IMG/VR virus record: IMGVR_UViG_3300048573_000453
Span: 32,421 to 96,420 of that record
Origin: a virus
Taxonomy: Duplodnaviria; Heunggongvirae; Uroviricota; Caudoviricetes
Direction: 5' to 3' (one strand)
DNA length: 64,000 nt
Below, one piece after another: positions 1,462-57,023 of this stretch (its first letter is position 1; each line of letters begins with the position of its first letter). The notes beneath the pieces were generated by a model, which had not been told where the DNA came from, did no database searches, and saw only the letters and a list, made by a program, of their open reading frames with translations. Position numbers and translations under genes: made by a program.

Positions 1462-1510
1462 TCCTATAATTGGCAGTTAGTGACTTTGCGATATTTGACA
1501 ATGTGTAATT
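1462..1510 (-). promoter_or_regulatory. conserved ~45-bp upstream motif, copy 1
   Basis: ACACATTGTCAAATATCGCAAAGTCACTAACTGCCAAT..GGATTGAAAATG. Confidence 0.4.
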
Positions 1511-1522
1511 CGTTCGTTCATA

Positions 1523-1867
1523 TTACCACCTCACTCTGATAGCATAGCCAGTTCCTTCACAGGGCTTGTCGTCCACGCTACCAAGCCCACCGCCGATAGT
1601 GATCGGGTATCCGTGAATATCCACAGTGAATCCCAACTTCTCAAGTTCAACCTTGAGCAATCGTTGTACAGGAGTAAATTCAGGGTCGCGGTATGGTCTC
1701 TTATCAACCTTCACCCAGTCTGAGAGGTAGAGATAGTGATTTAACAATACTTCACGCTTACCCAAAGTGGCCTCTGATCTAACCAATTTGTCAACACATT
1801 CCAATCGTTTTTTAACGGTGGCATCACTTTGCTCAACCATCTCACGGGCTTCTTTTGCTGTGATCAT
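1523..1867 (-). CDS. hypothetical protein (start at ATG 1867)
   Basis: ORF; same conserved upstream motif and RBS as the gene at 1455. Confidence 0.5.
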   Translation of the reverse strand: MITAKEAREMVEQSDATVKKRLECVDKLVRSEATLGKREVLLNHYLYLSDWVKVDKRPYRDPEFTPVQRLLKVELEKLGFTVDIHGYPITIGGGLGSVDDKPCEGTGYAIRVRW

Positions 1868-1869
1868 TT

Positions 1870-2328
1870 TCAATCCTTTGATTGGCAGTTAGTGACTTTG
1901 CGATATTTTACAATGTGTCGATATGAGTCATTGACGTTCCAAGAGGCATCCCACGCCAGCGATTGGGCTTTGTGAATATGCCCATTAGACAGCACGACTT
2001 CGATTATATCTTCTTCGCTCAATGTAGATGGGGCCAGAGGCAATGTTTGAGTATTGAGAATCCATTCATCGGAAGAGTCAGTCTTGGTTTCATATTTCTC
2101 ACATTCAGCTTGCGTCTCAAAGATTTTACCGTCGTCGGTCAGACAAGCCGCCGTAAGTTCCATTACCGAGTATCCATTGAGCCATGGTTCACCATTCTGT
2201 TTCTTGATGAAGTATACGGGGTATTTCCAGTCTGGAAGCGAAATGCCAACCACGACACATAATGTACCGTCCAAACTAGCTGAAGTGTTTACGATCTTGA
2301 CAAGTTGTCCATTAGGGAAGAGTTTCAT
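1870..2328 (-). CDS. hypothetical protein (152 aa)
   Basis: ORF in array. Confidence 0.5.
   Translation of the reverse strand: MKLFPNGQLVKIVNTSASLDGTLCVVVGISLPDWKYPVYFIKKQNGEPWLNGYSVMELTAACLTDDGKIFETQAECEKYETKTDSSDEWILNTQTLPLAPSTLSEEDIIEVVLSNGHIHKAQSLAWDASWNVNDSYRHIVKYRKVTNCQSKD
1874..1922 (-). promoter_or_regulatory. conserved ~45-bp upstream motif, copy 2
   Basis: Near-identical to the copy at 1462..1510. Confidence 0.4.
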
Positions 2329-5659: not shown

Positions 5660-5971
5660 TTAGTATGAGTAAACTTCTTTAGCGAATGGATCGTAGCAGA
5701 ACTGAACGTCCCATTCAAGAATATGTGGCTTATCGCCGACATACATGTACTGACGGAGGTAATCCGCATGATCAGCGTCTGATCCCGACCACCGAAGCCA
5801 AGATGAAGCCTTGGCAAAAGCAGCAGACAAAATAACGATGGCTTCCTTCTGATTATCGGTTTCTGCATTCAGAAAATCTTCATCCTTGACCAGGGTCGAA
5901 AATGCGTTTTCGATATGTCGCTGGAAGTCAATGTCAGGGAAGGCTACGCAGAGTGCCTTTTTGTGTGTCAT
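5660..5971 (-). CDS. hypothetical protein (103 aa)
   Basis: ORF preceded by promoter-module copy A and an AAGGAAAT RBS. Confidence 0.55.
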   Translation of the reverse strand: MTHKKALCVAFPDIDFQRHIENAFSTLVKDEDFLNAETDNQKEAIVILSAAFAKASSWLRWSGSDADHADYLRQYMYVGDKPHILEWDVQFCYDPFAKEVYSY

Positions 5972-6045
5972 GATATATTTCCTTGGTTCAGCGTTTTATA
6001 ATTAAGCATACCGCGGAGTTGAATAAAAGTAAACGGTACCGAAGT
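5972..6045 (-). promoter_or_regulatory. repeated promoter/leader module, copy A
   Basis: CTTTACTTTTATTCAAC-N7-GGTATGCTTAATTATAAAACGCTGAAC...AAGGAAATATATCATG: -35-like TTTACT, 17-bp spacer, -10-like TATGCT/TATACT. Confidence 0.5.
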
Positions 6046-6053
6046 TTACGATT

Positions 6054-6125
6054 TCAAATGAACAAATCCACAATGACAACTATGATCAAGATGGCAAACA
6101 ACAGACGACAGGTATCAGCAATCAT
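6054..6125 (-). CDS. small hydrophobic peptide (23 aa, MIADTCRLLFAILIIVVIVDLFI)
   Basis: Not in ORF track (<60 aa); has its own copy of the promoter module and AAGGAAAT RBS; single predicted TM helix. Confidence 0.45.
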   Translation of the reverse strand: MIADTCRLLFAILIIVVIVDLFI

Positions 6126-6200
6126 AATATATTTCCTTGGTTCAGCGTTTTATAAATTAAGTATACCGCGGAGTTGAATAAAAGTAAAGACCGGCACGTC
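6126..6200 (-). promoter_or_regulatory. repeated promoter/leader module, copy B
   Basis: Same module upstream of the 23-aa peptide gene. Confidence 0.5.
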
Positions 6201-6211
6201 TTTACTGACAT

Positions 6212-6322
6212 TCATTCTTCCCCTACTGAGTAGAACACGTCACGAAATGGCGAACCGCTTTCTTCGTTATCCCAGAAGGTGTCATCGTAAGACTGGAAAT
6301 TTCGGTAAACTACGAATTTCAT
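6212..6322 (-). CDS. small protein (36 aa, MKFVVYRNFQSYDDTFWDNEESGSPFRDVFYSVGEE)
   Basis: Own promoter-module copy C and AAGGAAAC RBS. Confidence 0.4.
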   Translation of the reverse strand: MKFVVYRNFQSYDDTFWDNEESGSPFRDVFYSVGEE

Positions 6323-6400
6323 TTTGTTTCCTTCAGTTCAGCGTTTCATTATATTAAGTATACCGCAACGTTGAATAAAAGTAAAGATCAAACTTTACCG
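6323..6400 (-). promoter_or_regulatory. repeated promoter/leader module, copy C
   Basis: Same module upstream of the 36-aa gene. Confidence 0.5.
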
Positions 6401-6768
6401 AAGCTGCAATTTTTGATGAACTCACATTCGCTGCCGAAGGTACAGTAGTTGCCAAAGTTGCAGTAGCTATCGAAGCTGCAGTAGTTGCCGAACTCGCAGT
6501 GGCTGCTGAAGATGCAATTACTTCCGAAGGTGCAGTGTTTGCCGAAGATGCAATTGCTATCGAAGGTACAGAAGTTGCCGAAAGTAGAGTGGCTTCCGAA
6601 AGTAGAGTGGCTTCCGAAAGTAGAGTGGCTTCCGAAAGTAGAGTGGCTTCCGAAGTCGCATTCGTCGCCGAAGTTGCGCACCTCGGAATAATCTCCAGTG
6701 GGGCACTGACGCCAACCGCTGATGCCCATAGGCAGGGCATCAAACTCTTTCTGGGTGAACTTTTTCAT
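6388..6768 (-). CDS. cysteine-rich hexapeptide-repeat protein (126 aa)
   Basis: Encoded by ~18 tandem 18-bp repeats; protein has 6-aa period xCxFGx plus 4 exact FGSHST units; AAGGAAAT RBS; the four overlapping track ORFs here are repeat artefacts. Confidence 0.6.
   Translation of the reverse strand: MKKFTQKEFDALPMGISGWRQCPTGDYSEVRNFGDECDFGSHSTFGSHSTFGSHSTFGSHSTFGNFCTFDSNCIFGKHCTFGSNCIFSSHCEFGNYCSFDSYCNFGNYCTFGSECEFIKNCSFGKV
6426..6680. repeat. coding tandem 18-bp repeat array (~14 units, 4 of them identical)
   Basis: cgaaagtagagtggcttc x4 exact, flanked by degenerate gaaNNTGCAGTNNNTGCC units. Confidence 0.9.
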
Positions 6769-6821
6769 AATGTATTTCCAGTACCGTTAAAATTCAGAGA
6801 ATTAAAACTTCCCCGTTCCAA

Positions 6822-6912
6822 ATCTCAATTATACCCTACACTTGAATAAAAGTACAGACTTGTTATTTGTCTATGACAGACGTGACTGAACTTCGATTTC
6901 AAGAACCGAAGT
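6822..6912 (-). promoter_or_regulatory. distal part of the module (copy E), shared with copy D
   Basis: TTGAATAAAAGTACAGACTTGTTATTTGTCTATGACAGACGTGACTGAACTTCGATTTCAAGAACCGAAG. Confidence 0.4.
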
Positions 6913-6913
6913 G

Positions 6914-7921
6914 TCAAATTGAAGAGCGAAGCCGCGCAATGCGATCTTTAAGTTCTTGCTCTTGTGCCTCAAGCTCTTTAAGCTTTTTGATTTTATCCTG
7001 TTGATCAGACAGTAGCTTCTCATACTTTATCGGAAACGCCAACAATTCCGACATCTGTCGATGTATGTCGGCAATTATAGAAGGGTTTGAATACTGTGCA
7101 TCATTAAAATAAATCGGTTCTTTTGGGTAATCTGGTTCATCTGTGTAAAACGTCTCATATTGCGGTTCACGATCAGAATATTCAGTTATCGTGTTGCCAC
7201 CATTCCATTCGGAGTCCTTATAAGTATGGCGCATTCCTCCCACATACCCGACAATTTTAGTGCGATCATAATGCATGACTGAGCGGACACGTTCGCCCCG
7301 TTTTGCTTTTTGGGTTTCTGCGTCAAACCATGCTTTTGCATTTGTATTTTTTAAGTGCTCGGCTTCGATCTGTTCCTCTAGTTCAATCTTACGCTTTTCC
7401 AATATTTCATACTGCTTTAGCACAAGTGGATACAAAGCCAGAGATTCCTCTGGAGTTGCAGCCATTAGCAAATCTTGATCTTCGATAATTTGGCCCATGG
7501 CTTTTAAAGAAATCTCTACCCATTGCATAGGAGTAAAATCGTGGGATACGAAAATCAACCCTTCTTTCCGAGCCAAATCTGGCAGTTTTTCGCGAGCATC
7601 TCGAAACCGACCATCACTTCCAAGATACTTGCGTGAGCGGGAAATATCACCGTGGACCAAAACGCCCCTATGAATGATGCAATATCCATCAGAATAGAAA
7701 ATAGAAGTTGAGAACTTATCAACTTTTGCCCGAATGAAACGACCAGAAGGCGAACGAATTATTTTAACAGGAAGACTTGGAAGGACATTGAGCCAAGAGC
7801 TAACAAAATCCAAAGGAATGTTAGTTGCTTTGGAAAGCATTTTCTGGGTATACGGCTTGGAATTATTGCACGTAAACAGAACCAATTCTTTAATATACTG
7901 ACATTTTTTGTCGTAAGTCAT
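6914..7921 (-). CDS. hypothetical protein with C-terminal coiled coil (335 aa)
   Basis: ORF; no confident motif. Confidence 0.5.
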   Translation of the reverse strand: MTYDKKCQYIKELVLFTCNNSKPYTQKMLSKATNIPLDFVSSWLNVLPSLPVKIIRSPSGRFIRAKVDKFSTSIFYSDGYCIIHRGVLVHGDISRSRKYLGSDGRFRDAREKLPDLARKEGLIFVSHDFTPMQWVEISLKAMGQIIEDQDLLMAATPEESLALYPLVLKQYEILEKRKIELEEQIEAEHLKNTNAKAWFDAETQKAKRGERVRSVMHYDRTKIVGYVGGMRHTYKDSEWNGGNTITEYSDREPQYETFYTDEPDYPKEPIYFNDAQYSNPSIIADIHRQMSELLAFPIKYEKLLSDQQDKIKKLKELEAQEQELKDRIARLRSSI

Positions 7922-7987
7922 GCCGGAGTCCGTGGTCTTAAAAGAAAATTATAAAGTGTTTAAGTTCTTTGAACTTCATCATTTACA

Positions 7988-8209
7988 TCATACCTGACTC
8001 TGAATATCCAATGAAAGTTTACGGGCGAGAAGACCTGCGTCGCCTAACCAGCCATCTTTATGATCATTGATAAAGTCATAAACGTCGGATCTAGGGAAGG
8101 AAAAGAGAATAGTCCAGACAAGATGATTCTGCTCAGGTTGAGATTTCTCTGAGAAGTTCATTGAATAGGTGTTGATCGTTTTGATCAGAGGGGTCACCAT
8201 CATCGCCAT
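7988..8209 (-). CDS. hypothetical small protein (73 aa)
   Basis: ORF preceded by promoter-module copy D. Confidence 0.5.
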   Translation of the reverse strand: MAMMVTPLIKTINTYSMNFSEKSQPEQNHLVWTILFSFPRSDVYDFINDHKDGWLGDAGLLARKLSLDIQSQV

Positions 8210-8330
8210 AATATATTTCCTTCAGTTCAGCGGTTTATAATTAAGTATACCGCAACGTTGAATAAAAGTAAAGACTTGTTATTAGTGTATGCCAGACGTG
8301 ACTGAACTTCGATTTCAAGAACCGAAGCGG
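8210..8330 (-). promoter_or_regulatory. repeated promoter/leader module, copy D (full, with distal part)
   Basis: Upstream of 7988..8209. Confidence 0.5.
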
Positions 8331-22672: not shown

Positions 22673-22918
22673 TTAATTAACGGACACATTTGGTGAACCT
22701 GTTGCAGCAGAATGATTCTTACTATCTTTATCACCGACACGTACAACAGGCTTCCCATTTGCAAAAACATTTGGTGAACCAGCAACCTTCGAATGATTCT
22801 TGTTATCTTTATCACCGACTCGCACAATAGGTTTTCCATTTGCAAAAACATTTGGAGAACCAGTTACTGCAACCTGATTAGCAGAATCTGTATCTCCGAC
22901 TCTAACAATTTTTGACAT
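22673..22918 (-). CDS. PAAR-repeat protein (spike-tip, T4 gp5.4-like)
   Basis: Three repeats of GSPNVFANGKP(I/V)VRVGD matching the PAAR consensus. Confidence 0.6.
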   Translation of the reverse strand: MSKIVRVGDTDSANQVAVTGSPNVFANGKPIVRVGDKDNKNHSKVAGSPNVFANGKPVVRVGDKDSKNHSAATGSPNVSVN

Positions 22919-22920
22919 GA

Positions 22921-23109
22921 TTACTCAAGCAATCGAAAAAATGTTAGCAACAAAGCTGCAGGGATTACAGATGCCAAAGAAATCACTACTATAGAAGCCA
23001 AAATAGTGCATAGTAAAAATACAATGGTTGCAACGCCAACTGACGCTGCAAGAGCGCCAGTAATAACTAGCAAGCCGCCTAGTACGGCAAGCGCAATTGC
23101 GTTAAGCAT
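22921..23109 (-). CDS. small membrane protein (62 aa, two predicted TM helices; start at internal ATG 23109)
   Basis: Hydrophobic; start overlaps the upstream stop. Confidence 0.4.
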   Translation of the reverse strand: MLNAIALAVLGGLLVITGALAASVGVATIVFLLCTILASIVVISLASVIPAALLLTFFRLLE

Positions 23110-23290
23110 CAGATTTTGACCCCTTAGAGCCCTTCGCAAAGTCGCCGTAGGTGCGAAACTTTTGCCACCAGGCATTAACCTTTGTGTGCAGTGGCGTAGT
23201 TTTAGCTGCGCCCTTTTCACCACGCTGATGCATGGCAGTGATTACTTTAGCTTGGGCTTTACGTTTTGCGTTTTTGTTATTACGTGACAT
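23102..23290 (-). CDS. small basic protein (62 aa)
   Basis: AAGGAAGAAA RBS. Confidence 0.5.
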   Translation of the reverse strand: MSRNNKNAKRKAQAKVITAMHQRGEKGAAKTTPLHTKVNAWWQKFRTYGDFAKGSKGSKSDA

Positions 23291-24164: not shown

Positions 24165-25283
24165 TTATTTCATCGATTTAAGCAAAGCAACAACCCTTTT
24201 TGCCTCAGCATCTAGGTCAGTAACTTTACGATTGTGTTCTCGTGTAGTAGTGTTTTTATAATCTGCCCCGACAGTTCGCTGCAACATTGAGATGTACTGC
24301 GGACGACAGCCAAGCATTTCAGCAATGGTTCCGGGTTCCCCGTGATTCCATTCAAATACTGTTCCGGGCTTCCAAGCTGCTTCAATGTCTTTAAGCATCT
24401 GTAAGAACACAGGTTTGCTTTTTCGAAGCACGGTTTCATAATCTGTTTTCAAAAAGAACTTGGATAAATTCTGCAGCGCATCGAATTTTGACATGTAAAT
24501 ATCAATGGTCGGAAACTTTCTAAACCAATCGTCTTGTCCGTAACTTCTAACTTCATACTTAAACGTTCCTATAGCAAGCAGTTTAAAAATTTTGCCTTTT
24601 GATTCGTCATTGAATTCTTCCGGATGGTGATGCATGATGTATTCTAACATCTTTTGCATGTCAGTATCGCTATCGTAGTCTTTCTTTTGCATTCTCGACA
24701 CTATAGAATTAACGTCATCGTCTGCGATAGTATCTTTAAATGTTTTTAACTCTTCAATTTCAACATTATAAGCCCCAGCAGGGAGAATAACTTCAGATTC
24801 TACGCCGAACCCCGTCTTTCGAATATCAAGCCCTTTGCCCGCTGGAATTTCCGTTTTGAGCACAACCCCACGGTAGCCTGTAATTCGTTCTTTTGCTTTC
24901 GACTGATTAGAGATGTTCGACCACATGCTAGCAGACATGAATTCCATATAAGACGGTTTAGTTTTTGCGAAGACCAAAGCTTGCTTTCTTGATGGCGACC
25001 AAGATGAAATTGATTCGAATTTTATTTTTCCGCTGTCAACTTGTCGCATAAAGGAATCATATTCTTCTTTACTTGAAAAATTCAAGCCTCTATAGATTGT
25101 CATTGGTTCATCATTACCATATCGTTCTATAGCATCATGAATAACTTCGGCAACTTCATGCGCATGAAAGGGATCTAACACGTATTTTGCAATGGCTCGT
25201 TCAATAGGATCACGAATTTTATTCGCATCATTCATTCGATCTTTAATTGCAGACTCTTTCAAGAAGTCAATAAAACGGCCCAT
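24165..25283 (-). CDS. putative ADP-ribosyltransferase (R-S-E type, Alt/Mod-like)
   Basis: TIYRG (Arg), SISSWS (S-x-S), GVESEVILP (E-x-E). Confidence 0.4.
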   Translation of the reverse strand: MGRFIDFLKESAIKDRMNDANKIRDPIERAIAKYVLDPFHAHEVAEVIHDAIERYGNDEPMTIYRGLNFSSKEEYDSFMRQVDSGKIKFESISSWSPSRKQALVFAKTKPSYMEFMSASMWSNISNQSKAKERITGYRGVVLKTEIPAGKGLDIRKTGFGVESEVILPAGAYNVEIEELKTFKDTIADDDVNSIVSRMQKKDYDSDTDMQKMLEYIMHHHPEEFNDESKGKIFKLLAIGTFKYEVRSYGQDDWFRKFPTIDIYMSKFDALQNLSKFFLKTDYETVLRKSKPVFLQMLKDIEAAWKPGTVFEWNHGEPGTIAEMLGCRPQYISMLQRTVGADYKNTTTREHNRKVTDLDAEAKRVVALLKSMK

Positions 25284-28242: not shown

Positions 28243-28559
28243 GACATTGGTTGCAATTTTGAGTCCAAAATCATGTTTCCTACTCTATAATTGTCCGCTT
28301 TTTCTGAAATAAAATGACCTACTGCATAGACATGTCCTTCAAATACAAATTTATTAATTTCGTAATCGTACGTAACAATTTCTTCTGTATTGCCTGCAGA
28401 TCCTGGTCCTACCAAGTTCTTTTGATGATTAACCTCGGACCAGCGAAATGATGACTGAAATTCAGCCCATATTGTTTTACCATTTGCTGGTCCGCCAATA
28501 AACAGAATTTGTTGCATAATTTTCTTATAATGTGGACCGTGCCGGGATCGAACCAGCAA
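28224..28559 (-). CDS. hypothetical protein (111 aa)
   Basis: ORF. Confidence 0.45.
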   Translation of the reverse strand: MLVRSRHGPHYKKIMQQILFIGGPANGKTIWAEFQSSFRWSEVNHQKNLVGPGSAGNTEEIVTYDYEINKFVFEGHVYAVGHFISEKADNYRVGNMILDSKLQPMSCVVYH

Positions 28560-28607
28560 CCTGTATGCTTTAGCAAAGCAACCGCTCTCCCAATTGAGCT
28601 AACGGTC
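28532..28607 (-). tRNA. tRNA, anticodon ambiguous (TTGCTAA loop reads GCU; stem weak with 2 extra nt)
   Basis: 7-bp acceptor GGACCGT/ACGGTCC; D-arm GCTC-AATTGGGA-GAGC; T-arm GCTGG-TTCGATC-CCGGC; no encoded CCA. Confidence 0.6.
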
Positions 28608-28738
28608 CGTAAAATTTCTTATTTAGAACCCCAAGTAGCTTAAAACATTCAATCATTGCGATGTAAGAACTAGTAAAGATGTCGGTTCTTTTTTACGTTC
28701 TGAGTTGTTCTTGAAAAACTCGTCAATGTTTTCGTCGT
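28574..28738. repeat. direct repeat copy 1 (~165 bp, ~93% identical to 29567..29747)
   Basis: Alignment read by eye; covers tRNA 5' part, upstream region and a gene remnant. Confidence 0.85.
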
Positions 28739-28790
28739 GTTCAAGTTCCCCCAACTTATAAGGCACATCTCAGAAATGTTGATATTTTGC
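28652..28790 (-). pseudogene. remnant of a family-B paralog (N-terminal ~8 codons fused to C-terminal ~30 codons, with a frameshift)
   Basis: Encodes ...PYKLGELEHDENIDEFFKNNSERKKEPTSLLVLTSQ*; compare 29657..30262, which starts MKLSTLFEMPYQLGQF and ends ...ENIDEFFIWNNSEHKKEPTSLLVLTSQ*. Confidence 0.55.
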
Positions 28791-28803
28791 TACTGGCGGT
28801 AAT

Positions 28804-29418
28804 TCACTTTGGGTTAAGATAAATTATTTTTTGCTTATATTGCTCGTCAATGATGTCAACATGCCCAATTTCAAAATCTATTAAACTTCTATTTTTAACA
28901 ATTACTTCTCCCAATCCGTCGCCTATTTCTGAGATGTCAAACAGTACTTCTGCACGTTGGGTTGGAATAAAAAGCACAATTCCGGTCCAATTTTTTAAAT
29001 CTTCATCTTTCGTTGCATATAATTCAGCAACCTGTTTTGAAAGCGACCAAGATTCATATCCCTTAAACGGAATATTGATTTGCTTAGTTTGTTCTAGCTG
29101 CTTTATAATTGGAGATCGATTACTAAAAACCATTCCGCGAAAAAGCGTTTCCGATTTCAATTTTGTGGACAAATCTTTAAAATATTTGTCATAGATTTTT
29201 CTTGAACCCACCATATTTGACATAAATTCTGATGCCCAATAGCATAATGGATGGGTTAGTTCAAATTCATCATACAAATCTTCAATTTCTCCATCTTTCA
29301 TTTCATACTTGTTGTTCAAGTATTTGCCAATTTGCATTTCTTTTGTCAATTTGAAACTAACACCGCCAATATTGACGTGTTCTGCGGACGTAGCATTTAA
29401 AATTTCTTTGAGCAGCAT
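28804..29418 (-). CDS. hypothetical protein, possible ADP-ribosyltransferase-like (ModA/ModB-sized)
   Basis: TLFRGMVF (Arg), GYESWSLS (S-x-S), GLGEVIV (single Glu); weak. Confidence 0.3.
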   Translation of the reverse strand: MLLKEILNATSAEHVNIGGVSFKLTKEMQIGKYLNNKYEMKDGEIEDLYDEFELTHPLCYWASEFMSNMVGSRKIYDKYFKDLSTKLKSETLFRGMVFSNRSPIIKQLEQTKQINIPFKGYESWSLSKQVAELYATKDEDLKNWTGIVLFIPTQRAEVLFDISEIGDGLGEVIVKNRSLIDFEIGHVDIIDEQYKQKIIYLNPK

Positions 29419-29523
29419 AAATTCCCCTATAGATCACCGTATTTACTTGATTCTGCATGGAAAACAACTCAAGAGCTAAGGCAAGTTCTTTGATTACTGA
29501 GGCGGGTTTTGCAGGTGTTGAAC

Positions 29524-29559
29524 CCACTACCAACTACCAACTACCAACTACCAACTACC
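29524..29559. repeat. heptamer tandem repeat (CAACTAC)x5
   Basis: ccactac + 4 x caactac. Confidence 0.9.
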
Positions 29560-29566
29560 TGATCCT

Positions 29567-29602
29567 AAAGCAACCGCTCTCCCAATTGAGCTAACAGTCT
29601 GT
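29567..29602 (-). pseudogene. truncated tRNA (5' 36 nt, diverged copy of the tRNA at 28532..28607)
   Basis: ACAGACTGTTAGCTCAATTGGGAGAGCGGTTGCTTT vs ACGGACCGTTAGCTCAATTGGGAGAGCGGTTGCTTT. Confidence 0.6.
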
Positions 29603-29747
29603 AAAATTTCTTATTTAGAACCCCAAGTAGCTTAAAACGTTCAATCATTGCGACAATCATTGTGAAGTAAGAACTAGTAAAGATGTCGGTTCTTTTTTAT
29701 GTTCTGAGTTGTTCCAAATGAAAAACTCGTCAATGTTTTCGCCGTTG
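29567..29747. repeat. direct repeat copy 2 (~180 bp including a 9-bp indel)
   Basis: Matches 28574..28738; overlaps the 3' end of CDS 29657..30262. Confidence 0.85.
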
Positions 29748-30262
29748 TAAATTATTATTTCGCCTGTTTCATCCCTTAACCAATCTTCAAGAGCATCGCT
29801 CCAAATTCTGATTACAAATTTCCTAATTAGGCTTTCTGTTGCCATCTTTTTCCAGAGAGCTTTGCCGCCATCAAACTGTTCAAAATCAGGGACAATTGTA
29901 AAACCGTATCTAGCAAGAAGAACATACATTGCCATTGCAAGGTTTCTGTTTCTAAACTTCGGTTGATTGTACACTGTATGAACTTGTAATTCATTATCTA
30001 CTGGCACCCCCGCTCTATTATCAAAGCGCACAGATAGAACTATTTCATTCCTTTCTGCACCTTTAGACTTGATGGTGACCGTAGCACCACCTTTGTCATT
30101 AGAAAGCCAAAATCTAAATCGATCTTCACCCTGTTCAAGTTCCCCAAGAAAATGATTTTCTCGTTCCAAACCCGCATCTGAAGGTGTAGCAATGTTGCTG
30201 ATAGATGGCGGTTGAAACTGTCCAAGTTGATAAGGCATTTCAAACAACGTTGATAATTTCAT
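29657..30262 (-). CDS. paralog family B protein (full length, 201 aa)
   Basis: ORF; homologous to 25486..26124, 35558..35965 and the fragments at 28652 and 33579. Confidence 0.55.
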   Translation of the reverse strand: MKLSTLFEMPYQLGQFQPPSISNIATPSDAGLERENHFLGELEQGEDRFRFWLSNDKGGATVTIKSKGAERNEIVLSVRFDNRAGVPVDNELQVHTVYNQPKFRNRNLAMAMYVLLARYGFTIVPDFEQFDGGKALWKKMATESLIRKFVIRIWSDALEDWLRDETGEIIIYNGENIDEFFIWNNSEHKKEPTSLLVLTSQ

Positions 30263-30873
30263 AACTTTACAAATGGGCCAGTTTTTAAGAATTCTGTTAG
30301 GGACGCTCTTCTAGGGTCAATCCATTCGGCATTATTAATTTGTTTTAAGCTTACTAAGAATTCATTTGGCCGATTTCTTCGTTGGTAAAAATATCCATTT
30401 TTCTGTCTTGCAATTCTTCGTGCAAGCATTTCGTAAAGTTTTACAGTTTGCTGGAACTGTTTATTATTTTGGCTATGAAAGTATTCGGCCGAAAAATAAA
30501 ATGGAACGTCACTAATCTTATCAGCTAAAGCATTTAGAACCACCCCATAGACAGTTGACGGTACAACATCAGAAGATTTAGCGGGTTTTAAAAATGCTTG
30601 GTTGCTATCTTCGTTTCTAAAGAAACATACTTCAAAAGCATTTTCGACTGTAACTGCTGGGCCAATCTGTATTATAAATTGCTGTTCGTCCCAAATGAAT
30701 GCTGTTAATTCATAATCCCCATGTTTTTGCCAAACTAGGTCAAGTTTAGTATCAAAAATTTCGTAAAGAAAACTATCCATAATTGCTTTCTCCAAATTTA
30801 AAAACTCCCTGGGCACAAATCCCAGGGAGTTTTTAAACGGTTTTGGAGGAGCATAATAGAATCGAACTATCAC
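30259..30873 (-). CDS. paralog family A protein (204 aa)
   Basis: Shares ...WQ(K/Q)(H/N)G..EL(T/A)(A/S)F... and ...YGVVLNA... with 55903..56469 and 56466..57023. Confidence 0.5.
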   Translation of the reverse strand: MIVRFYYAPPKPFKNSLGFVPREFLNLEKAIMDSFLYEIFDTKLDLVWQKHGDYELTAFIWDEQQFIIQIGPAVTVENAFEVCFFRNEDSNQAFLKPAKSSDVVPSTVYGVVLNALADKISDVPFYFSAEYFHSQNNKQFQQTVKLYEMLARRIARQKNGYFYQRRNRPNEFLVSLKQINNAEWIDPRRASLTEFLKTGPFVKL

Positions 30874-31031: not shown

Positions 31032-31044
31032 AATTTTAAAACCC

Positions 31045-31095
31045 CTTTGTCCGGCCAGCTGGATTCGAACCAGCGACTTATTGCTTAGCTTACCA
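31045..31095 (-). other. tRNA 3'-half-like segment (T-arm GCTGG-TTCGAAT-CCAGC + acceptor 3' strand TGGCCGG)
   Basis: Base-pairs over 13 nt with the 5'-half-like segment at 31510..31556. Confidence 0.35.
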
Positions 31096-31401
31096 CTATA
31101 GCTTTCGCTACTGAGAATTTTTATCTTCCCGCGCGTGGTCTGAGCTTTGTCTTCATCTGTTCTAGATGGTAGCCGTCAAGTCTCTACACGTTCCTTTTTC
31201 AAGGCTTCGCTCGGCGTTGGCATAAAAATACTGTCCTCTGGATTAAATGTATTTATGCAGCGTTCGCCGAATTTGACTACATTCACAATAAACATCCCTA
31301 TTTATGTGCCCCATTAGAACTGTTTAACATATTTGCTTCTTATTCATTGTCGTAGAATTATTGTAACTCAAATTATTCTATCTAGAATAATAAATTAAAA
31401 T

Positions 31402-31494
31402 GTACTTTGCTCGCCAGAGTGGATTCGAACCACCATTGACTCCGTTACGGTACTACGCTTTAGAAGAGCGCTCCGGTACTGGCGAGCAAAGTAC
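31402..31494 (-). other. inverted-repeat-bounded tRNA-like element (16-bp IR GTACTTTGCTCGCCAG)
   Basis: Contains T-arm GGTGG-TTCGAAT-CCACT and an anticodon-like hairpin GCGCT-CTTCTAA-AGCGT (UCU); no canonical D-arm. Confidence 0.35.
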
Positions 31495-31509
31495 AATCAG
31501 GTAAAAGGT

Positions 31510-31556
31510 TAAATACTCAAAATTACTCTATCCATCTGAGTTATGGCCGGACAAAG
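31510..31556 (-). other. tRNA 5'-half-like segment (acceptor 5' strand CCGGCCA + D-arm ACTC-AGATGGAT-AGAGT)
   Basis: 13-bp inverted repeat with 31045..31057 (CTTTGTCCGGCCA / TGGCCGGACAAAG). Confidence 0.35.
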
Positions 31557-31594: not shown

Positions 31595-31708
31595 TGGTAG
31601 GCCGTGTTGGACTCGAACCAACGACCAAAGGATTATTCTTCGGCTTCTTTTGTTATTATCCAACAGAATGCCTGAGTCCTCTGCTCTAACCAACTGAGCT
31701 AACGGCCC
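31595..31708 (-). tRNA. tRNA with expanded anticodon region (114 nt; ~38 extra nt between anticodon-stem halves)
   Basis: Acceptor GGGCCGT/ACGGCCT + A + CCA; D-arm GCTC-AGTTGGTT-AGAGC; T-arm GTTGG-TTCGAGT-CCAAC; stem halves GAGGA ... TCCTT are 44 nt apart. Confidence 0.55.
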
Positions 31709-32238: not shown

Positions 32239-32810
32239 AGTAGATTTTCAATTGAATTAATCATAGGCAGCGCGATATGTTGCTTTCTAACTTTACATTT
32301 ATCCCACGTGTATTTGGTTCCACCGTCTTTTGGGATGTCCCCTCTGCCAAAGGTATACGCAAGCATAAAATCACATCCTGCTGCAACTTTATCATTTCTT
32401 CCAAACATTCCGGAATAACCGTTAGATTTTGGCTCGTATGTAACGAACTGTTTTGAATCTATGACTTCTGCTATTTGTCGGAGCGAATCATACCCTATTA
32501 TTTGGCTGAACTTTTCATGGTAAAAATTGCATGCCCTAGAGGTCTTATTGTAAGCTGCATCGCTAAAACGTTTTGTCTGAAGACAGAAAGGTGCAGGTAA
32601 ATGTAAAATTATATCCTTACATTTTCCTGTCAAAAACAATTCGACAGCTAAATGATCTGCCCATGCAGCTCCACCAGAAATCACCGTATCATCTTCACGA
32701 ACATCTGAAGAAACATCCCGAATCATCCAGCGCCATAATTCTTTAGACATCGGAATCAATTTATCCCTTCCAGCAGTTCCTATAATAGCAATTTTCATCT
32801 CTACTCCCAA
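32235..32810 (-). CDS. SLOG/DprA-like Rossmann-fold protein
   Basis: IAIIGTAGRD ... ISGGAAWADHLAVE pattern typical of the SLOG (Smf/DprA-LOG) superfamily. Confidence 0.4.
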   Translation of the reverse strand: MGVEMKIAIIGTAGRDKLIPMSKELWRWMIRDVSSDVREDDTVISGGAAWADHLAVELFLTGKCKDIILHLPAPFCLQTKRFSDAAYNKTSRACNFYHEKFSQIIGYDSLRQIAEVIDSKQFVTYEPKSNGYSGMFGRNDKVAAGCDFMLAYTFGRGDIPKDGGTKYTWDKCKVRKQHIALPMINSIENLL

Positions 32811-33578: not shown

Positions 33579-33690
33579 CTATTTTGATGTAAGCACTAAT
33601 AACGTTGTCGCTTCATTGTGCTGGGAAATATCTTTCCAAATTTGGTCATCATCGAGATTTTCAGCATTATAATTACGCGGTTCTATAAAA
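33579..33690 (-). pseudogene. C-terminal fragment of a family-B paralog displaced by the IS insertion
   Basis: Encodes ...NYNAENLDDDQIWKDISQHNEATTLLVLTSK*; compare ...IYNGENIDEFFIWNNSEHKKEPTSLLVLTSQ*; no start codon. Confidence 0.6.
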
Positions 33691-34908
33691 ATCTATAAAA
33701 CTCACTAAACGCTTCACAGAAGCTGCCTTTGGAAGAACTTCCTTAGGTCTTACTGCCCCTCCACGTCTGTACTCGGTTAATTCAGCCGAGGTCATGTCAT
33801 AAAGGTCCTTTACACCTTCATTTAAAATATTGATAGCCGCATTTAAGTCGCGATCATGGCTTGAGCCGCATATTGGGCATGTCCATTCTCTTATGGATAA
33901 ATCCATCGTTTCCATTTTATGGCCGCAGCAAGAACACGTCTTACTCGATGGGAACCAAGTATCTATCTTATGAAATGTGCGGCCATACCACCTACTTTTG
34001 TATTCCAGCATTGAAATAAAAGTGGACCAACTTGCATCAAGTATGGATTTTGCCAAACTATGATTCTTAACCATGTTTTTAACTTTTAGAGTTTCAGTAC
34101 AAATAACATCGTAATTTTCTATTAACCAACTCGACAGGTTATGGTAAATGAACTTGCGCTGATTTACAATATCCCTATGGATTTTCGCAACTTTGATTTT
34201 CTGTTTATTGTACCTTTTAGAACCCTTTGTTTTTCTGCTTAAATGCTGCTGTGACCGTTTTAGTTTAGATTGGTTTTCTCTGAACCATCTTGGATTGGAA
34301 ATTTGCGTACCATCACTTAAGATGAGCAAGTTTTTCAATCCGAGATCAATACCGATTGAGCGACCAGTATTTTGTTTCAATTCTATTTCTTCTTCAACTA
34401 AAATTGAAACAAAATATTGCCCACTTGGATTTTTAGAAATTGTGACAGATTTTGGTTTACCAGTAAAAGGTCTATCTATGATTACTTTTACTGGAGACAT
34501 TTTTGGAAATTTAATAAAACCTGCTTTAATTTGTTCAAATTTTTCTAAATGCATTGAAGCCGCAGGAATCCTAAATGATTCATTGCCACCCCGCTTTTTA
34601 AATTTTGGTCTTCCCAGTTTAGCTTTACGGTTTTTAGAGAAAAATTGCTTTTTGGTTTCATCAAAATCGATTCGTTTTTGCTGCAAGGCATAACTAATAG
34701 CATCTTTAAGCCATGGAAAGTTCTCATCATCTTTCAAAATCTTCTCATTCATTGGTCGGTTTGGGCCTTCTTTTGAAAAAGAATTAAAATTGGCAACTAA
34801 CTGATTCCAAATGAAGCGAACACATCCAAAATTTTGGAGAAGAAATTTCTCTTGCTTATTATTAGGATATATTCGGTACTTAAAAGCCTTAAGAACTGTA
34901 TTTGTCAT
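33673..34908 (-). CDS. tnpB: TnpB (OrfB) RNA-guided-nuclease-family protein of an IS607/IS200-605-type element
   Basis: N-terminal KYRIYPNNKQEKFLLQNFGCVRFIWN; zinc finger CSCCGH...CPICG; RuvC-III DRDLNAAINI. Confidence 0.85.
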   Translation of the reverse strand: MTNTVLKAFKYRIYPNNKQEKFLLQNFGCVRFIWNQLVANFNSFSKEGPNRPMNEKILKDDENFPWLKDAISYALQQKRIDFDETKKQFFSKNRKAKLGRPKFKKRGGNESFRIPAASMHLEKFEQIKAGFIKFPKMSPVKVIIDRPFTGKPKSVTISKNPSGQYFVSILVEEEIELKQNTGRSIGIDLGLKNLLILSDGTQISNPRWFRENQSKLKRSQQHLSRKTKGSKRYNKQKIKVAKIHRDIVNQRKFIYHNLSSWLIENYDVICTETLKVKNMVKNHSLAKSILDASWSTFISMLEYKSRWYGRTFHKIDTWFPSSKTCSCCGHKMETMDLSIREWTCPICGSSHDRDLNAAINILNEGVKDLYDMTSAELTEYRRGGAVRPKEVLPKAASVKRLVSFIDFYRTA

Positions 34909-35501
34909 TTTTCTGAATCGTTAGCTAATTCTTGAACCAATTTTTCCGTATTCCGTTTGCTGCGGCGCTGTCCATAAATTCTTGCGCAAAAAGATGTAAT
35001 GACGGACACAAAATCCTGAACAATGTCTTCTTTATCTGACTCTACATTATTCACTACATCGATTTCAATGCCATTAGAATTTAATAGCTGTTCAATATAA
35101 TTGAAACCGAATCTAGTCAGCCGATCCTTATGTTCAACTACTAATTTAGTAAAATCCTGTTCCTTAAGAAGCTTTTCCAGTTTTGGCCTCTTATCATTTA
35201 GTCCAGATCCAAATTCTGTAACGACTTTAGCAACTTTGTAACCTCTAGCGTTACAATATGAAATCAACCTTTCGGATTGAGTCTCAAGATTAGATTTATT
35301 TGCAGTCGAAGAAACACGACAATAAATCACTACGCGTTCTTCTTCCTTGGCCTTTATACCAAGGAATTTGTTGTAAGTTTCAATATCAACATAATTCATT
35401 GAACCAATTTTATGAAATTGTATTTTTCCAGCCTTCTTCCAATTCCACAGCGTCATCCTGGTTACACCAAGATCTGCAGCAAATTTTTTAAGTTTAATCA
35501 T
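34905..35501 (-). CDS. tnpA: IS607-type serine recombinase transposase TnpA (MerR-like HTH + resolvase catalytic domain)
   Basis: VIYCRVSSTANKSNLETQ catalytic Ser region; ...VTEFGSGLNDKRPKLEKLL...VVEHKDRLTRF. Confidence 0.8.
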   Translation of the reverse strand: MIKLKKFAADLGVTRMTLWNWKKAGKIQFHKIGSMNYVDIETYNKFLGIKAKEEERVVIYCRVSSTANKSNLETQSERLISYCNARGYKVAKVVTEFGSGLNDKRPKLEKLLKEQDFTKLVVEHKDRLTRFGFNYIEQLLNSNGIEIDVVNNVESDKEDIVQDFVSVITSFCARIYGQRRSKRNTEKLVQELANDSEK

Positions 35502-35557
35502 TTGATTTCCTATATAAGATATATTATATTTATACTTTTATTTATAGGAATTGAGAT

Positions 35558-35965
35558 TTAAATATAATATTGGGTAAAATCTGAAACAATAGTAAATCCG
35601 TATCGCGCCAAAACTACGTAAAGCGCCATTGCTAATCCCTGGGTTTGAAACTTTGCGTGAGTATAAACAGATTCAACTTGCAGCTCATTTTCTACTGGAA
35701 GGTTTGAACGGTTATTAAAACGCACTTTAGTTATAGTTAATTGACGAGGTTGGCCAATATCGTCTACGCCTGAAGTAGTAACTTCGGCATAAAATTTACC
35801 CTTATTTAGCCAAAAATGGTATTCAGTTCCACCTTTTTCAAGGGTTCCCAAAAAATCATTCATACGACGCAAATTTTCAAGAGATGGATAATTGTCCATC
35901 TTGATAATGGGCCTCGCATCTTGGTCCATATGATATGGGCCCTCAAAAAGTTCTTGGGTTTTCAT
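35558..35965 (-). CDS. paralog family B protein, 3'-truncated by the IS insertion (start at ATG 35965)
   Basis: MKTQELFEGPYHM... aligns to MKLSTLFEMPYQL...; ends ...SDFTQYYI* where intact paralogs continue. Confidence 0.55.
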   Translation of the reverse strand: MKTQELFEGPYHMDQDARPIIKMDNYPSLENLRRMNDFLGTLEKGGTEYHFWLNKGKFYAEVTTSGVDDIGQPRQLTITKVRFNNRSNLPVENELQVESVYTHAKFQTQGLAMALYVVLARYGFTIVSDFTQYYI

Positions 35966-36078
35966 GTCAATTTTTATTTTAGGTCTTGATTTAACTGCCA
36001 GTGCGTCGGTTTCCCAACGACAGTTTAGCAAACTGCTCCCTTAACCAACTTAACCACTCGTGCAAAAATCCATTTTTT

Positions 36079-51917: not shown

Positions 51918-53024
51918 TTATTCTCGTCGGTAAACTTTTGCAACTGTTGAATAAGTGTCATTAGTAAACTCTATATCAGCATTACTGACATTGATTTCTT
52001 CCATGGAGGTCTTAAAAGGCAATACCTGTTGCCGGGGAATCGGTGCATCTGGGTAAACGATTTGTCCAGCAGCTTGATCGGCATCGTCCAACGATGATTT
52101 AAAAACTTGCGATTTTAGTGAGCGCATAGTAATTATTTCAGGTTGTTCGGTCTTAGCTTCAGCAGGTTCATTTTCTGCAGGCGGAACTACAGACGGTTTT
52201 TGAGGTTCTTCAACAGGCTCCTTTTCAACTTGTGGTTCAACTTTTATATTGTACTTCCATGGCACAATTGTTGGCTCGACTTTTTTAACTGGTGGTTTAA
52301 CAGGGGCTTGGAAAACAGGAAGTTCCTGGACAGCAGGTTCAAGTTCACTCTTCCTACGAGCAATAAGAAAGTTTCCAGCCACAAGTAGAGCAACTGCTAA
52401 CGGGTCAAACACGAAAATGATGAACAGAATGACCCATTTTACTGCTTGTTCTGGCGTAGTATTAAATACGCTAGCGACATACATGATTGGGCCAATTTTT
52501 GTGTTTTGACTGATCGCATTTACCTTGAGTTCTGGCAGCTCTTTATCTATGGCTACCAAGCGCTTATTGATAGAAGTAGATTCAACCTTAAATTGGTTGG
52601 TTAGGCGGACTCTGCTCGTCACAGAATTTGCAGGAAGATTCGCAATTTGCGCATCGATTTCCTCTTTGCGTTTCTGTAGGCGATCCTTCTCCTCGGTTAG
52701 GGCATCAATTAGGACCGTTTGCTGGTTGTTTCCAGAGATAGCTTTTTGGAATTCCCCAGAGAGGAATCCAAAAACTCCAGCCGAAGTAATGATCATCAGG
52801 ACCAATGTAGCAAATGACATGTAAAACTTCATTTTCAAACTGATTTCTTTCCAGTTTTTGTACAAGAACGTTACACTAGCGACTTTGGCAATATCCAGAG
52901 AAACTGCCATCGCAATTACAATCGGGCTTCCGGCAAAGAGTGCGCTAAGGCCGAGTACGCTAATCCAAGTTCCTAACCCCTCAAGTAAAAATGCAGACAA
53001 CATTACAAATGCAATAAACAGCAT
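51918..53024 (-). CDS. membrane protein with Pro/Val-rich region (368 aa)
   Basis: Multiple hydrophobic segments. Confidence 0.5.
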   Translation of the reverse strand: MLFIAFVMLSAFLLEGLGTWISVLGLSALFAGSPIVIAMAVSLDIAKVASVTFLYKNWKEISLKMKFYMSFATLVLMIITSAGVFGFLSGEFQKAISGNNQQTVLIDALTEEKDRLQKRKEEIDAQIANLPANSVTSRVRLTNQFKVESTSINKRLVAIDKELPELKVNAISQNTKIGPIMYVASVFNTTPEQAVKWVILFIIFVFDPLAVALLVAGNFLIARRKSELEPAVQELPVFQAPVKPPVKKVEPTIVPWKYNIKVEPQVEKEPVEEPQKPSVVPPAENEPAEAKTEQPEIITMRSLKSQVFKSSLDDADQAAGQIVYPDAPIPRQQVLPFKTSMEEINVSNADIEFTNDTYSTVAKVYRRE

Positions 53025-53049: not shown

Positions 53050-53373
53050 TTAAAAAGCGTATGTTACTGACTCATCTAAACCGATTGCAATAACTTTTGA
53101 ATCATCAGATTTCCAATAACCTTTATCTTCAAATTTATGTTCCACTGTCCACTGTAGGGATTCAATGAGGACCAGATCGCCTTCGGAGAAATCTTCCACT
53201 TTATCTCCTACAGCGATTACTTTCCCCCATCGGGCAGAATTGCCTTGTTGCGAAACATCTTGATTGGTTAGAATGATTGTACTACGATTTTTCTCAATAA
53301 ACCGTCCACCTACAGTCTCATTTACAAAAGAGAATAGAAAGGAGCGTCCTAGAGGTTTAAGTTTTGAAGTCAT
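53050..53373 (-). CDS. GroES-family co-chaperonin (T4 gp31-like)
   Basis: LKPLGRS...GKVIAVG...GDLVL pattern; ~107 aa. Confidence 0.55.
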   Translation of the reverse strand: MTSKLKPLGRSFLFSFVNETVGGRFIEKNRSTIILTNQDVSQQGNSARWGKVIAVGDKVEDFSEGDLVLIESLQWTVEHKFEDKGYWKSDDSKVIAIGLDESVTYAF

Positions 53374-55902: not shown

Positions 55903-56469
55903 ATGAAAATACAGGAAATTTTTGATACTAACGTAGATGTCGAATGGCAGCAAAATGGTAGATTTGAACTAGCATCATTTGTTTATGGTGAAACTTATGT
56001 AATCCAGATCGAGAAAAAGAAAATACCCAAACTAACGGAATTAAATGGTGCGAAACTGGCTGAAGCTTCATTTTACCGGACCGGAATTGAAGGGGAAAAC
56101 GCTTCGTTCACGACGACTAAGCAAGCAATTGACGTTCCGGTCCGAATTTACGGTGTAGTTTTAAATGCGGTTTCTGAAAAAATTGACGAATATGATGCGT
56201 TTATTTTTACTGCTGAAACAAAGCATTGTAGAACGGCTGAAGAGTTTTCATCAAAAAGGGATATTTATTCTGCAATCGCTGATAGAATAACTAAACGAAT
56301 GCACAACATTTTTTATTATGAACGCTTAACTGAAAATTCAGCGGAGTTTTTAATTACAAAAATTAAGCTATCGGAAGAAACTCAGGATAAAACAAATTTT
56401 AAAAACCCAAGGGCTGAAGCCATAAAAGCATTGAATTTGAAACCTACGGTATTACGTCCTAAATCTTGA
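55903..56469 (+). CDS. paralog family A protein (plus strand; tandem duplicate 1)
   Basis: Exact TATAAATA late-promoter-like octamer and AGGAG RBS upstream; MKIQEIFDT... like 56466..57023. Confidence 0.55.
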   Translation: MKIQEIFDTNVDVEWQQNGRFELASFVYGETYVIQIEKKKIPKLTELNGAKLAEASFYRTGIEGENASFTTTKQAIDVPVRIYGVVLNAVSEKIDEYDAFIFTAETKHCRTAEEFSSKRDIYSAIADRITKRMHNIFYYERLTENSAEFLITKIKLSEETQDKTNFKNPRAEAIKALNLKPTVLRPKS

Positions 56470-57023
56470 AAATACAAGAAATCTTTGATACGTCTGCGGA
56501 TATAGTTTGGCAGCAAAACGGTAGATTTGAACTAGCATCATTTGTGTGCGGTGAAAAATATGTTATTCAGATTGATAGAAAAAATCTAAATCAGTTCCCA
56601 GAATTAAAGCGTTCAAGGGTCGCAGAAATTTCGTTTTTTCGCTATGATGTTGATGATTCTGACGCAGCGCATACTACTGCACGGCAAGACTTAGATGTGC
56701 CCGTTAAAGTTTACGGAATAGTTTTAAATGCTCTATTAAAAAAGATGGAAGAATACGACGCATTCTTTTTCTCCGCGGAAACCAAACATTCGCCAACATT
56801 AGAAGAATACAAGTCTAAGAAATCAATTTATTTCTGGATTGCCGACCGCGTTTCTAAAAAATTATCAGGCGTAACACTTTATGAATACGAATGCAATGTT
56901 AGCGCACAATTCTTAATAAGCAAAATCAAACTTGCCAAAGAAACACAAAACGCGACCGGCTTTAAAAATGCACTTGCAGAAGCTTTAGCTGCTACCACAT
57001 TCACTTTTGCAAGCGCCAAATAA
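56466..57023 (+). CDS. paralog family A protein (tandem duplicate 2)
   Basis: Start overlaps the stop of copy 1. Confidence 0.55.
   Translation: MKIQEIFDTSADIVWQQNGRFELASFVCGEKYVIQIDRKNLNQFPELKRSRVAEISFFRYDVDDSDAAHTTARQDLDVPVKVYGIVLNALLKKMEEYDAFFFSAETKHSPTLEEYKSKKSIYFWIADRVSKKLSGVTLYEYECNVSAQFLISKIKLAKETQNATGFKNALAEALAATTFTFASAK

Follow-up and report, generated by a model that had tools for sequence, protein, structure and literature searches.

Two direct repeats around an orphan gene in a phage tRNA region as the probable scar of a partial duplication

Within a 64,000-nucleotide stretch of a tailed-phage genome (class Caudoviricetes; record IMGVR_UViG_3300048573_000453, positions 32,421 to 96,420; hereafter the window, numbered from its first letter), two direct repeats bracket a segment in which the sole credible open reading frame is an orphan gene for a protein of 204 amino acids. 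Each repeat overlaps the end of a gene or gene remnant of one family, designated B, and the 5′ part of a tRNA. The question raised by this arrangement is whether the repeats are working sites by which phages exchange the gene between them, as the original prediction of a cassette-exchange locus held, or the remains of a rearrangement. The comparisons described here favor the second answer: the repeats are probably (at a rough probability of 0.62) the passive scar of a partial duplication and not a functional element. The event would be of a known kind, a decaying segmental duplication in a hyperplastic region, with no new mechanism. Coordinates of the features discussed are collected in Table 1.

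Contents of the two repeat copies

Pairwise alignment bore out the presence of two direct repeats, which are identical in 172 of 181 ungapped columns (~95%; blastn E 1.5e-62). Three indels separate them instead of the single 9-bp indel first described: two of these (9 and 3 nt) constitute a 12-nt tandem duplication in copy 2 (CAATGATTGTCG/CAATGATTG, at 29642..29662, just upstream of the copy-2 stub), and the other is an indel of 3 nt. Read on the minus strand, which carries nearly all genes of the window, each copy consists of ~27 codons from the end of a B-family gene, a 12-codon stub of a lost gene and nucleotides 1-34 of a tRNA; the ~5% divergence is distributed evenly across the coding, stub and tRNA parts. 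Copy 2 forms the 3′ end of the intact B gene, as had been predicted.

The spacer between the B codons and the tRNA is more than anonymous sequence: in copy 2 it encodes MIERFKLLGVLN, the N-terminus of the gene that follows B in a relative. In that relative (contigs L018 and L019), a 162-aa gene stands directly after B, and its ATG overlaps the B stop codon exactly as the ATG of the stub does in the window. The junction between stub and tRNA is common to both copies, and therefore the [B / stub / tRNA] unit is older than its duplication.

Copy 1 had been described as containing a decayed gene remnant, and remnants of both the N-terminus and the C-terminus of a second B gene (B′) are indeed recognizable there, but the C-terminal remnant carries no 1-nt frameshift; instead, according to an alignment of the family, an in-frame deletion of 3 nt has removed a conserved Ile-Trp (IW) pair. 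The N-terminal remnant has lost its start codon, has acquired an in-frame stop and small indels, and abuts the C-terminal remnant, codons ~20-172 (~150 codons) having been deleted between them. Because the N-terminal remnant is in register and the C-terminal remnant is 89% identical to B, a complete second B gene must once have stood upstream of copy 1. The identity of the N-terminal remnant in ungapped columns is 86%, versus 95% for the repeat core; with gapped columns included (31/40 versus 172/202), Fisher's test gives p=0.24, so that the N-terminal remnant is not significantly more diverged.

The tRNA parts of the two copies differ in their fate. Copy 2 had been credited with the first 36 nt of the tRNA and three substitutions; the partial copy is real, but it spans nucleotides 1-34 (29567..29600) and differs at two of them, G1>A and C5>T, both changes breaking pairing with the acceptor 3′ strand that the intact tRNA retains. 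The homology ends in the anticodon loop. The sequence 3′ of this breakpoint agrees with the intact tRNA at 17 of 29 positions, where the scores of 59 tRNAs center on a median of 14 and go no higher than 19, and it includes a T-arm-like remnant followed by an acceptor strand (AAAACCC) that cannot pair with AGACTGT of the pseudo-tRNA 5′ strand. Since 17/29 is no better than the match of unrelated tRNAs and since AAAACCC does not pair, the junction looks chimeric; the T-arm-like remnant is probably the 3′ part of another tRNA. The pseudo-tRNA region as a whole does not fold (z +1.27) and is unseen by Rfam. A complete but decayed copy of the intact tRNA was considered and is unsupported, the 3′ side being no closer to it than unrelated tRNAs are.

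The heptamer array reported beside copy 2 was confirmed and has no second occurrence in the window. Among contigs of the same phage population (see below), it is the only part of the repeat-locus architecture that varies, with three perfect units in L003, L005 and L007, four in the window and most contigs, and five in L014; it is most simply interpreted as replication slippage in dead sequence. The unit GGTAGTT resembles the variable-loop/T-stem sequence of the tRNA, CAGGTTGCTGG, but derivation of the array from CAGGTTGCTGG could not be shown.

The disabling changes at the locus are thus confined to the redundant member of each pair, namely the pseudo-tRNA and B′. Together with the even divergence of ~5%, this is the pattern expected of neutral decay after one event. 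The copies are colinear and in the same orientation, and their homology extends beyond the high-identity core, as in other decaying duplications.

The intact tRNA is itself of doubtful decoding identity. Bacterial-type tRNA-Ser is a class II tRNA with a long variable arm, and the tRNA-Ser(GCU) genes of relatives are 83-89 nt long; the intact tRNA has 77 nt and a variable region of ~7 nt. Its body is nearest to tRNA-Ala(UGC): it is 75% identical to the tRNA-Ala of one relative (L022), and its best match in a cultured phage is the tRNA-Ala of Stenotrophomonas phage Moby (78%). The identity of tRNA-Ala depends on a G3:U70 pair and a UGC or GGC anticodon, but A3-U70 is found in place of the former, and the anticodon loop TTGCTAA reads GCU. 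With neither the long variable arm of tRNA-Ser nor the pair and anticodon of tRNA-Ala, the tRNA-Ser call is probably wrong. The anticodon arm, TGCTTT-GCU-AAAGCA, is able to close up to a stem of 6 bp, leaving a loop of 3 nt.

Relatives, natural variation and a possible order of events

The population comparison was made with contig assemblies from JGI and Logan samples, fetched by exact-protein look-ups with B, the orphan gene and the downstream 97-aa gene as queries. About 20 contigs from separate samples reach the locus, with 97.8-100% identity to the window where measured. Both repeat copies, with the same copy-specific differences, are present in every contig that spans them (at least nine, from different samples), the copy number of the unit is constant, and neither an empty site nor other cargo was found among the ~20. 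Small deletions do segregate: 52 nt in B (L033; window 29771..29822), causing a frameshift and flanked by TTTC microhomology; 27 nt, in frame, in the orphan gene (L012; 29005..29031), just past its S-W-S motif; and 22 nt in the 185-aa gene (L008; 30461..30482). Such deletions in a natural population indicate that the region is deletion-prone, weakly constrained and non-essential; judged by its frameshifted allele, B is dispensable in the population. Truncated members of the B protein cluster were considered as alternative junctions and rejected, as they reflect small internal deletions.

More distant relatives differ at the locus. In L018/L019, whose B is 79% identical, the genes after B are, in order, the 162-aa gene, one of 213 aa and homologs of the 97-aa and 74-aa genes of the window, with synteny down to a metallophosphatase gene and with no tRNA, orphan gene or repeat at the locus; in L015-L017, whose B is 82% identical, the gene after B is unrelated to these and at least 174 aa long, and tRNA and repeat are again lacking. 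Comparison with relatives had been proposed as a check for presence or absence of a cassette, and its outcome is split between these distant relatives, of which L018/L019 lack the orphan gene and the repeat, and the near-identical contigs, all of which are occupied. By the gene orders of these relatives, the interval after B is a gene-flux hotspot. The claim of recombination at a hotspot near a tRNA therefore holds insofar as recombination gave rise to the locus and the interval is variable, but site-specific or ongoing cassette exchange is unsupported.

Wider searches placed the phage at some distance from characterized ones. INPHARED contained no near match to the window, and a distant search returned tRNA matches only; conserved window proteins have at most ~47% identity to those of large myoviruses and phiCbK-like phages. 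In IMG/VR, the spacer pattern and both proteins gave no match, and a B-family profile gave only relatives of ~30% identity; scans of metagenome collections found no match for the shared tRNA-half pattern and none for the orphan-family profile. ARAGORN identified six tRNAs in the window, to which Rfam adds three tRNA-like matches (two above and one just below threshold) and a sub-threshold match to the group I intron family. Relatives of the B gene from metagenomes sit in tRNA-dense arrays of 16-21 tRNAs per 12-20 kb, one of them on a 277-kb contig, which indicates that the window comes from the region where a large phage keeps its tRNAs and accessory genes.

The tRNA arrays of these relatives are interspersed with B paralogs and with Seg-like or NUMOD3 endonuclease genes, and in L020, L022 and L023 SegE-like GIY-YIG genes lie directly beside B homologs and tRNAs; such arrays offer both dispersed homology and sources of breaks. 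The window itself contains two further B paralogs, full or partial, and a precedent for rearrangement of the family, one paralog having been split by an IS607-like element. The structure model of B is confident (pLDDT 80) and matches solely acetyltransferases of the GNAT, HAT1 and MYST types, with weak scores (E at or above 8.6e-3, TM 0.35-0.41); B may thus be annotated, weakly, as GNAT-like. The tRNA genes, and with them this multi-copy GNAT-like family, probably furnish the scattered homology on which rearrangement draws.

The probable course of the partial duplication has four steps. As the order persisting in L018/L019 shows, the ancestral arrangement was a 185-aa gene, B and a 162-aa-type gene with its ATG over the B stop codon. 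In this lineage, the 162-aa-type gene was then shortened until only its 12 initial codons remained, and these became joined to a tRNA, giving the unit [B / 12-codon stub / tRNA], a step to which the contents of both copies testify. Next, illegitimate or homeologous recombination may have brought a pair of these units together, both facing the same way and separated by the orphan gene. The simplest form of this event would be one unequal crossover during co-infection, between the tRNA and a different tRNA with the break in the anticodon loop, the partners being a genome of the order 185aa-B-stub-tRNA and a related genome of the order tRNA*-orphan-B′-stub-tRNA-g97. A single crossover of this sort would yield the chimeric pseudo-tRNA, the two B-stub-tRNA units, the conserved upstream neighbor of B and the position of the orphan gene ~15 nt upstream of the lost B′ start. 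Alternatively, B-stub-tRNA may have been duplicated in tandem in situ, the orphan gene entering the upstream of the two tRNA copies afterward. Finally, the redundant parts decayed, as the comparison of the copies shows: the upstream tRNA keeps nucleotides 1-34 and runs into the slippage-prone heptamer array and the foreign T-arm-like remnant, while the downstream B copy has lost its start codon and codons ~20-172. The 165-180 bp present twice would then be whatever has not yet been deleted. In comparison with unequal or illegitimate crossover followed by pseudogenization, nothing essential differs at the locus: the copies are colinear, each functional part is kept once, stretches have been deleted, a start codon is gone, one junction is chimeric, and a microsatellite has grown in the dead copy.

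Several points weigh against this reconstruction. No donor genome of the order tRNA*-orphan-B′ was found, and the orphan family has only four or five members. The data do not decide between one crossover and duplication followed by insertion, and because the divergence of the B′ remnant is not significant, the version with two different parental genomes is without positive support. Finally, the comparison was made at the level of contigs, from which excision or amplification variants of low frequency could escape. The repeats could still serve homologous deletion of the orphan gene; no such variant was present among the contigs.

Table 1. Features of the repeat locus and of the IS607-like insertion (window coordinates)
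Feature	Coordinates	Strand	Remarks
Direct repeat copy 1	28575..28738		C-terminal remnant of second B gene, 12-codon stub, tRNA nt 1-34
Direct repeat copy 2	29567..29745		Functional B C-terminus, stub, pseudo-tRNA nt 1-34
Copy-1 stub, MIECFKLLGVLN	28621..28656	-	N-terminus of lost 162-aa-type gene; ATGA overlap with B′ stop codon
Copy-2 stub, MIERFKLLGVLN	29613..29648	-	83% identical over 12 aa to start of L018 162-aa gene
Intact tRNA	28532..28608	-	ARAGORN Ser(GCU), identity doubtful; Rfam tRNA 50.6 bits; cloverleaf fold z -2.9
T-arm-like remnant, GTGGG-TTCAACA-CCTGC then AAAACCC	29501..29527	-	Not recognized by Rfam
Heptamer array, (CAACTAC)n on plus and (GTAGTTG)n on minus strand	29522..29559		TRF period 7, 5.4 copies
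Intact B-family gene, 201 aa	29657..30262	-	GNAT-like fold, weakly supported
B′ C-terminal remnant, ENIDEFF-KNNSERKKEPTSLLVLTSQ	28656..28733	-	tblastn 89% over 27 aa versus B residues 175-201
B′ N-terminal remnant	28751..28788	-	B codons 2-14 in register, 31/40; 0/1000 shuffles reach score
Orphan gene (ART-like motifs only), 204 aa	28804..29418	-	AGGGGA ribosome-binding site 6 nt before ATG
IS607-like element with split B paralog	33582..36031	-	
IS607-like serine-recombinase TnpA	34905..35501	-	
IS607-like TnpB/Cas12f-like protein	33673..34908	-	
Split B paralog, N-terminal 130 residues	35558..36031	-	
Split B paralog, C-terminal remnant	33582..33683	-	

The orphan gene and other explanations of the repeats

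The orphan family is tiny. An exhaustive HMMER search of 1.84 billion representatives yielded four proteins, counting the query's own cluster, and a fifth emerged from a profile search; the known members are on short contigs. The single full-length homolog (48% identity; L025/L026) has as its neighbors homologs of window genes 53050..53373 and 51918..53024, which adjoin each other in the window ~24 kb from the orphan gene, and it is not flanked by the repeat unit. From the position of this homolog it follows that the orphan gene occupies different loci in different genomes. A foreign base composition of the orphan gene was looked for and rejected, as its GC content (0.33) and GC3 (0.30) are inside the range of the neighboring genes.

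The gene had been credited with weak motifs of an ADP-ribosyltransferase (ART). Enzymes of the R-S-E class have an ordered catalytic Arg, Ser-x-Ser and [QE]-x-Glu. The orphan family conserves L-x-R-G (R94-G) and Y-x-S-W-S (S123-W-S125) in all members that cover these positions; the third element is represented by G-E-V-I-V in two of the three full-length members, with a single Glu and with Leu at -2, and in P0019 Asn replaces the Glu. The protein has no match in Pfam and no sequence match in PDB, and its AlphaFold model is unusable (pLDDT 39). Its PHROG result is a weak 'minor head protein' match. The links to ADP-ribosyltransferases are two, both weak: PHROG 16619 (E 0.0065), of which three related proteins match the same stretch, and an hhalign alignment with residues 62-144 of the 372-aa protein encoded at 24165..25283 (52% probability, E 1.4e-4). 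The resemblance to ADP-ribosyltransferases thus stands at the level of motifs, with no match of profile or fold, and the proposed identity should be regarded as a lead rather than a finding.

The 372-aa protein (minus strand) merits attention in its own right: it is kept in relatives, and by eye its N-terminal part has the order YRG / SSWS / ESEVILP, fuller than that of the orphan protein, which looks like the R-S-ExE signature of ADP-ribosyltransferases, with no match in Pfam or PDB. A 14-nt translation-start context, TAGGGGAATTTATG, is identical between its gene and the orphan gene. In a relative (L032, 13153..13716), a 187-aa protein with the Pfam domain ART-PolyVal is encoded in the tRNA array, the B homolog lying ~2.5 kb upstream of it; considered as a relative of the orphan protein, it proved to be unrelated (hhalign probability 0.2%).

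Among explanations other than a passive scar, an active cassette-exchange locus is unlikely. According to this explanation, the repeats would be PeSL-like or att-like sites, and the orphan gene would be repeatedly excised, circularized and swapped between phages. Direct repeats ~1 kb apart do flank a single orphan gene, the genes after B do differ among relatives, an orphan homolog does stand at a different locus elsewhere, and mini-circles mediated by PeSL sequences are documented in T4-type phages (PMC2839356). The PeSL cassettes of T4-type hyperplastic regions are bounded by many-copy intergenic units that combine a sigma-70-like promoter and a terminator stem-loop (Arbiol et al. 2010, PMC2839356; Comeau et al. 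2014, PMC4122927). The present locus resembles those regions in being non-essential, rich in orphan genes and adjacent to tRNAs, with short direct repeats around one orphan and variable gene content, but its repeat is a gene end, a stub and a tRNA half in two copies, with no third in 64 kb. A promoter or terminator role for the repeat was rejected: scans for promoters and terminators called no site inside the unit, and regional counts equaled shuffle expectation. The terminator-like hairpin that had been predicted in each repeat does not exceed shuffled sequence in stability (z -0.35 on the plus strand, +0.49 on the minus strand), is not called by the terminator scan, and falls within B coding sequence in copy 2 and within the B′ remnant in copy 1. 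Moreover, the 0.8-kb segment is without a recombinase, what the repeat takes from the tRNA is its 5′ half instead of its 3′ half, the L025/L026 homolog lacks the flanking unit, and the ~20 independent contigs include none with an empty site or different cargo; no evidence of mini-circles or of presence/absence was found at the locus in the contig-level comparison.

Integrative elements that target tRNA genes have att repeats that cover the 3′ part of the tRNA, restoring the gene, and encode their integrase inside. The locus is similar to these in that direct repeats of a partial tRNA flank foreign DNA and in that one intact and one partial tRNA are present, but it repeats the 5′ 34 nt of the tRNA plus ~130 nt upstream, and the bracketed segment carries only the 204-aa orphan. 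With no integrase in the segment, the wrong half of the tRNA repeated and no empty site among the ~20 contigs, such an element is excluded. The IS607-like TnpA was likewise rejected as the agent of the repeat locus; it is ~5.5 kb away and part of its own insertion, and no link was found.

It is also improbable that the locus is the fossil of a tRNA-locus amplification, driven by an endonuclease as in phage T6, selected by a host defense that targets tRNAs and later collapsed and decayed. SegB cleaves within tRNA genes, which gives rise to tandem units of tRNA and truncated neighboring gene joined at microhomology, and these collapse without selection (PMC13096335; PMC2330249). The T6 case is the nearest mechanistic precedent for duplications seeded in tRNA clusters: here too the duplicated unit is a tRNA with a truncated neighbor, the junctions are at or near tRNA, and relatives have endonuclease genes among their tRNAs, including the SegE-like GIY-YIG genes that adjoin B homologs; in one strain (L003), a NUMOD3 endonuclease-like open reading frame is present ~2 kb upstream. 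Unlike SegB amplifications, however, the units are not head-to-tail but separated by ~0.8 kb of unique DNA with an unrelated gene; the second tRNA is truncated, so that the single intact copy, of doubtful decoding identity at that, gives no gain of dosage; no endonuclease gene adjoins the locus in the window; and the copy number is invariant among contigs.

More speculatively, and with rather low probability, the orphan protein could be a mobile anti-defense or host-modifying enzyme, a divergent ADP-ribosyltransferase akin to the 372-aa protein, whose gene is shuttled without a recombinase between loci of jumbo phages by way of tRNA and B-paralog homology arms; the repeats would then be working junctions, and the pseudo-tRNA and heptamer array would mark a recurrent site of breakage in the anticodon loop. 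A false repeat made by chimeric or collapsed metagenome assembly is very improbable, for although several contigs (L008, L010, L013, L029 and L030) break in or near the repeats or heptamer array and Logan contigs break inside the repeat, a genuine repeat would itself cause such breaks, the copies differ by single-nucleotide changes and indels not expected of collapse, and the spanning contigs from different samples agree in these differences.

Neighboring features and significance

Some features a few kilobases from the repeat pair are more unusual than the pair itself. The IS607-like element that splits a B paralog represents a TnpB-bearing insertion sequence that resides in a phage genome. 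On the minus strand at ~31044..31547 is a candidate split tRNA, with complementary acceptor strands ~500 nt apart and, in the intron mode of ARAGORN, an intervening sequence of 407 nt; its interior contains a group-I-intron-like match (31140..31336; E 1e-7, its 40.8 bits falling short of the gathering score) and, nested, a tRNA-like match (31410..31485). Contigs L003 and L007 differ from the window near 31366..31391, where L003 has an insertion of ~830 nt with an open reading frame of 202 aa on the opposite strand (1487..2095 of the contig) that contains a NUMOD3 motif and has PHROG matches to endonucleases and homing endonucleases (best E 8.5e-10). To judge from these matches, the insertion is a presence/absence polymorphism of a probable homing endonuclease in a cluster of tRNA-like and intron-like sequences. 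Another tRNA nearby (31598..31708, minus strand; Rfam 57.6 bits) has an insertion of 37-40 nt in its anticodon loop, which ARAGORN in intron mode reads as Leu(CAG) with a 37-nt intron.

The gene upstream of B (30259..30873) belongs to a second paralog family, of which a tandem pair (55903..56469 and 56466..57023) is found on the opposite strand ~26 kb away; the pair are 35% identical to 30259..30873 and 55% identical to each other. Intergenic repeats of 34-85 nt are present in three or four copies at 5968..8327 (plus-strand coordinates; for example, GTTCAGCG..TATACCGC..TTGAATAAAAGTAAA); unlike the copy 1/copy 2 repeat, this family could be a PeSL-like regulatory unit. At 22686..22928, three tandem units of 81 nt with 62-81% identity lie beside an open reading frame of 100 aa (22921..23223).

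For annotation, the repeat locus calls for caution in that it contains a pseudo-tRNA, a gene remnant and a doubtful 'tRNA-Ser' call. For the biology of large phages, it offers a clean, datable case of the entry of an accessory gene into a tRNA array and of the later erasure of redundancy, the routes of erasure being microhomology deletions, loss of a start codon and growth of a microsatellite in a dead tRNA copy.

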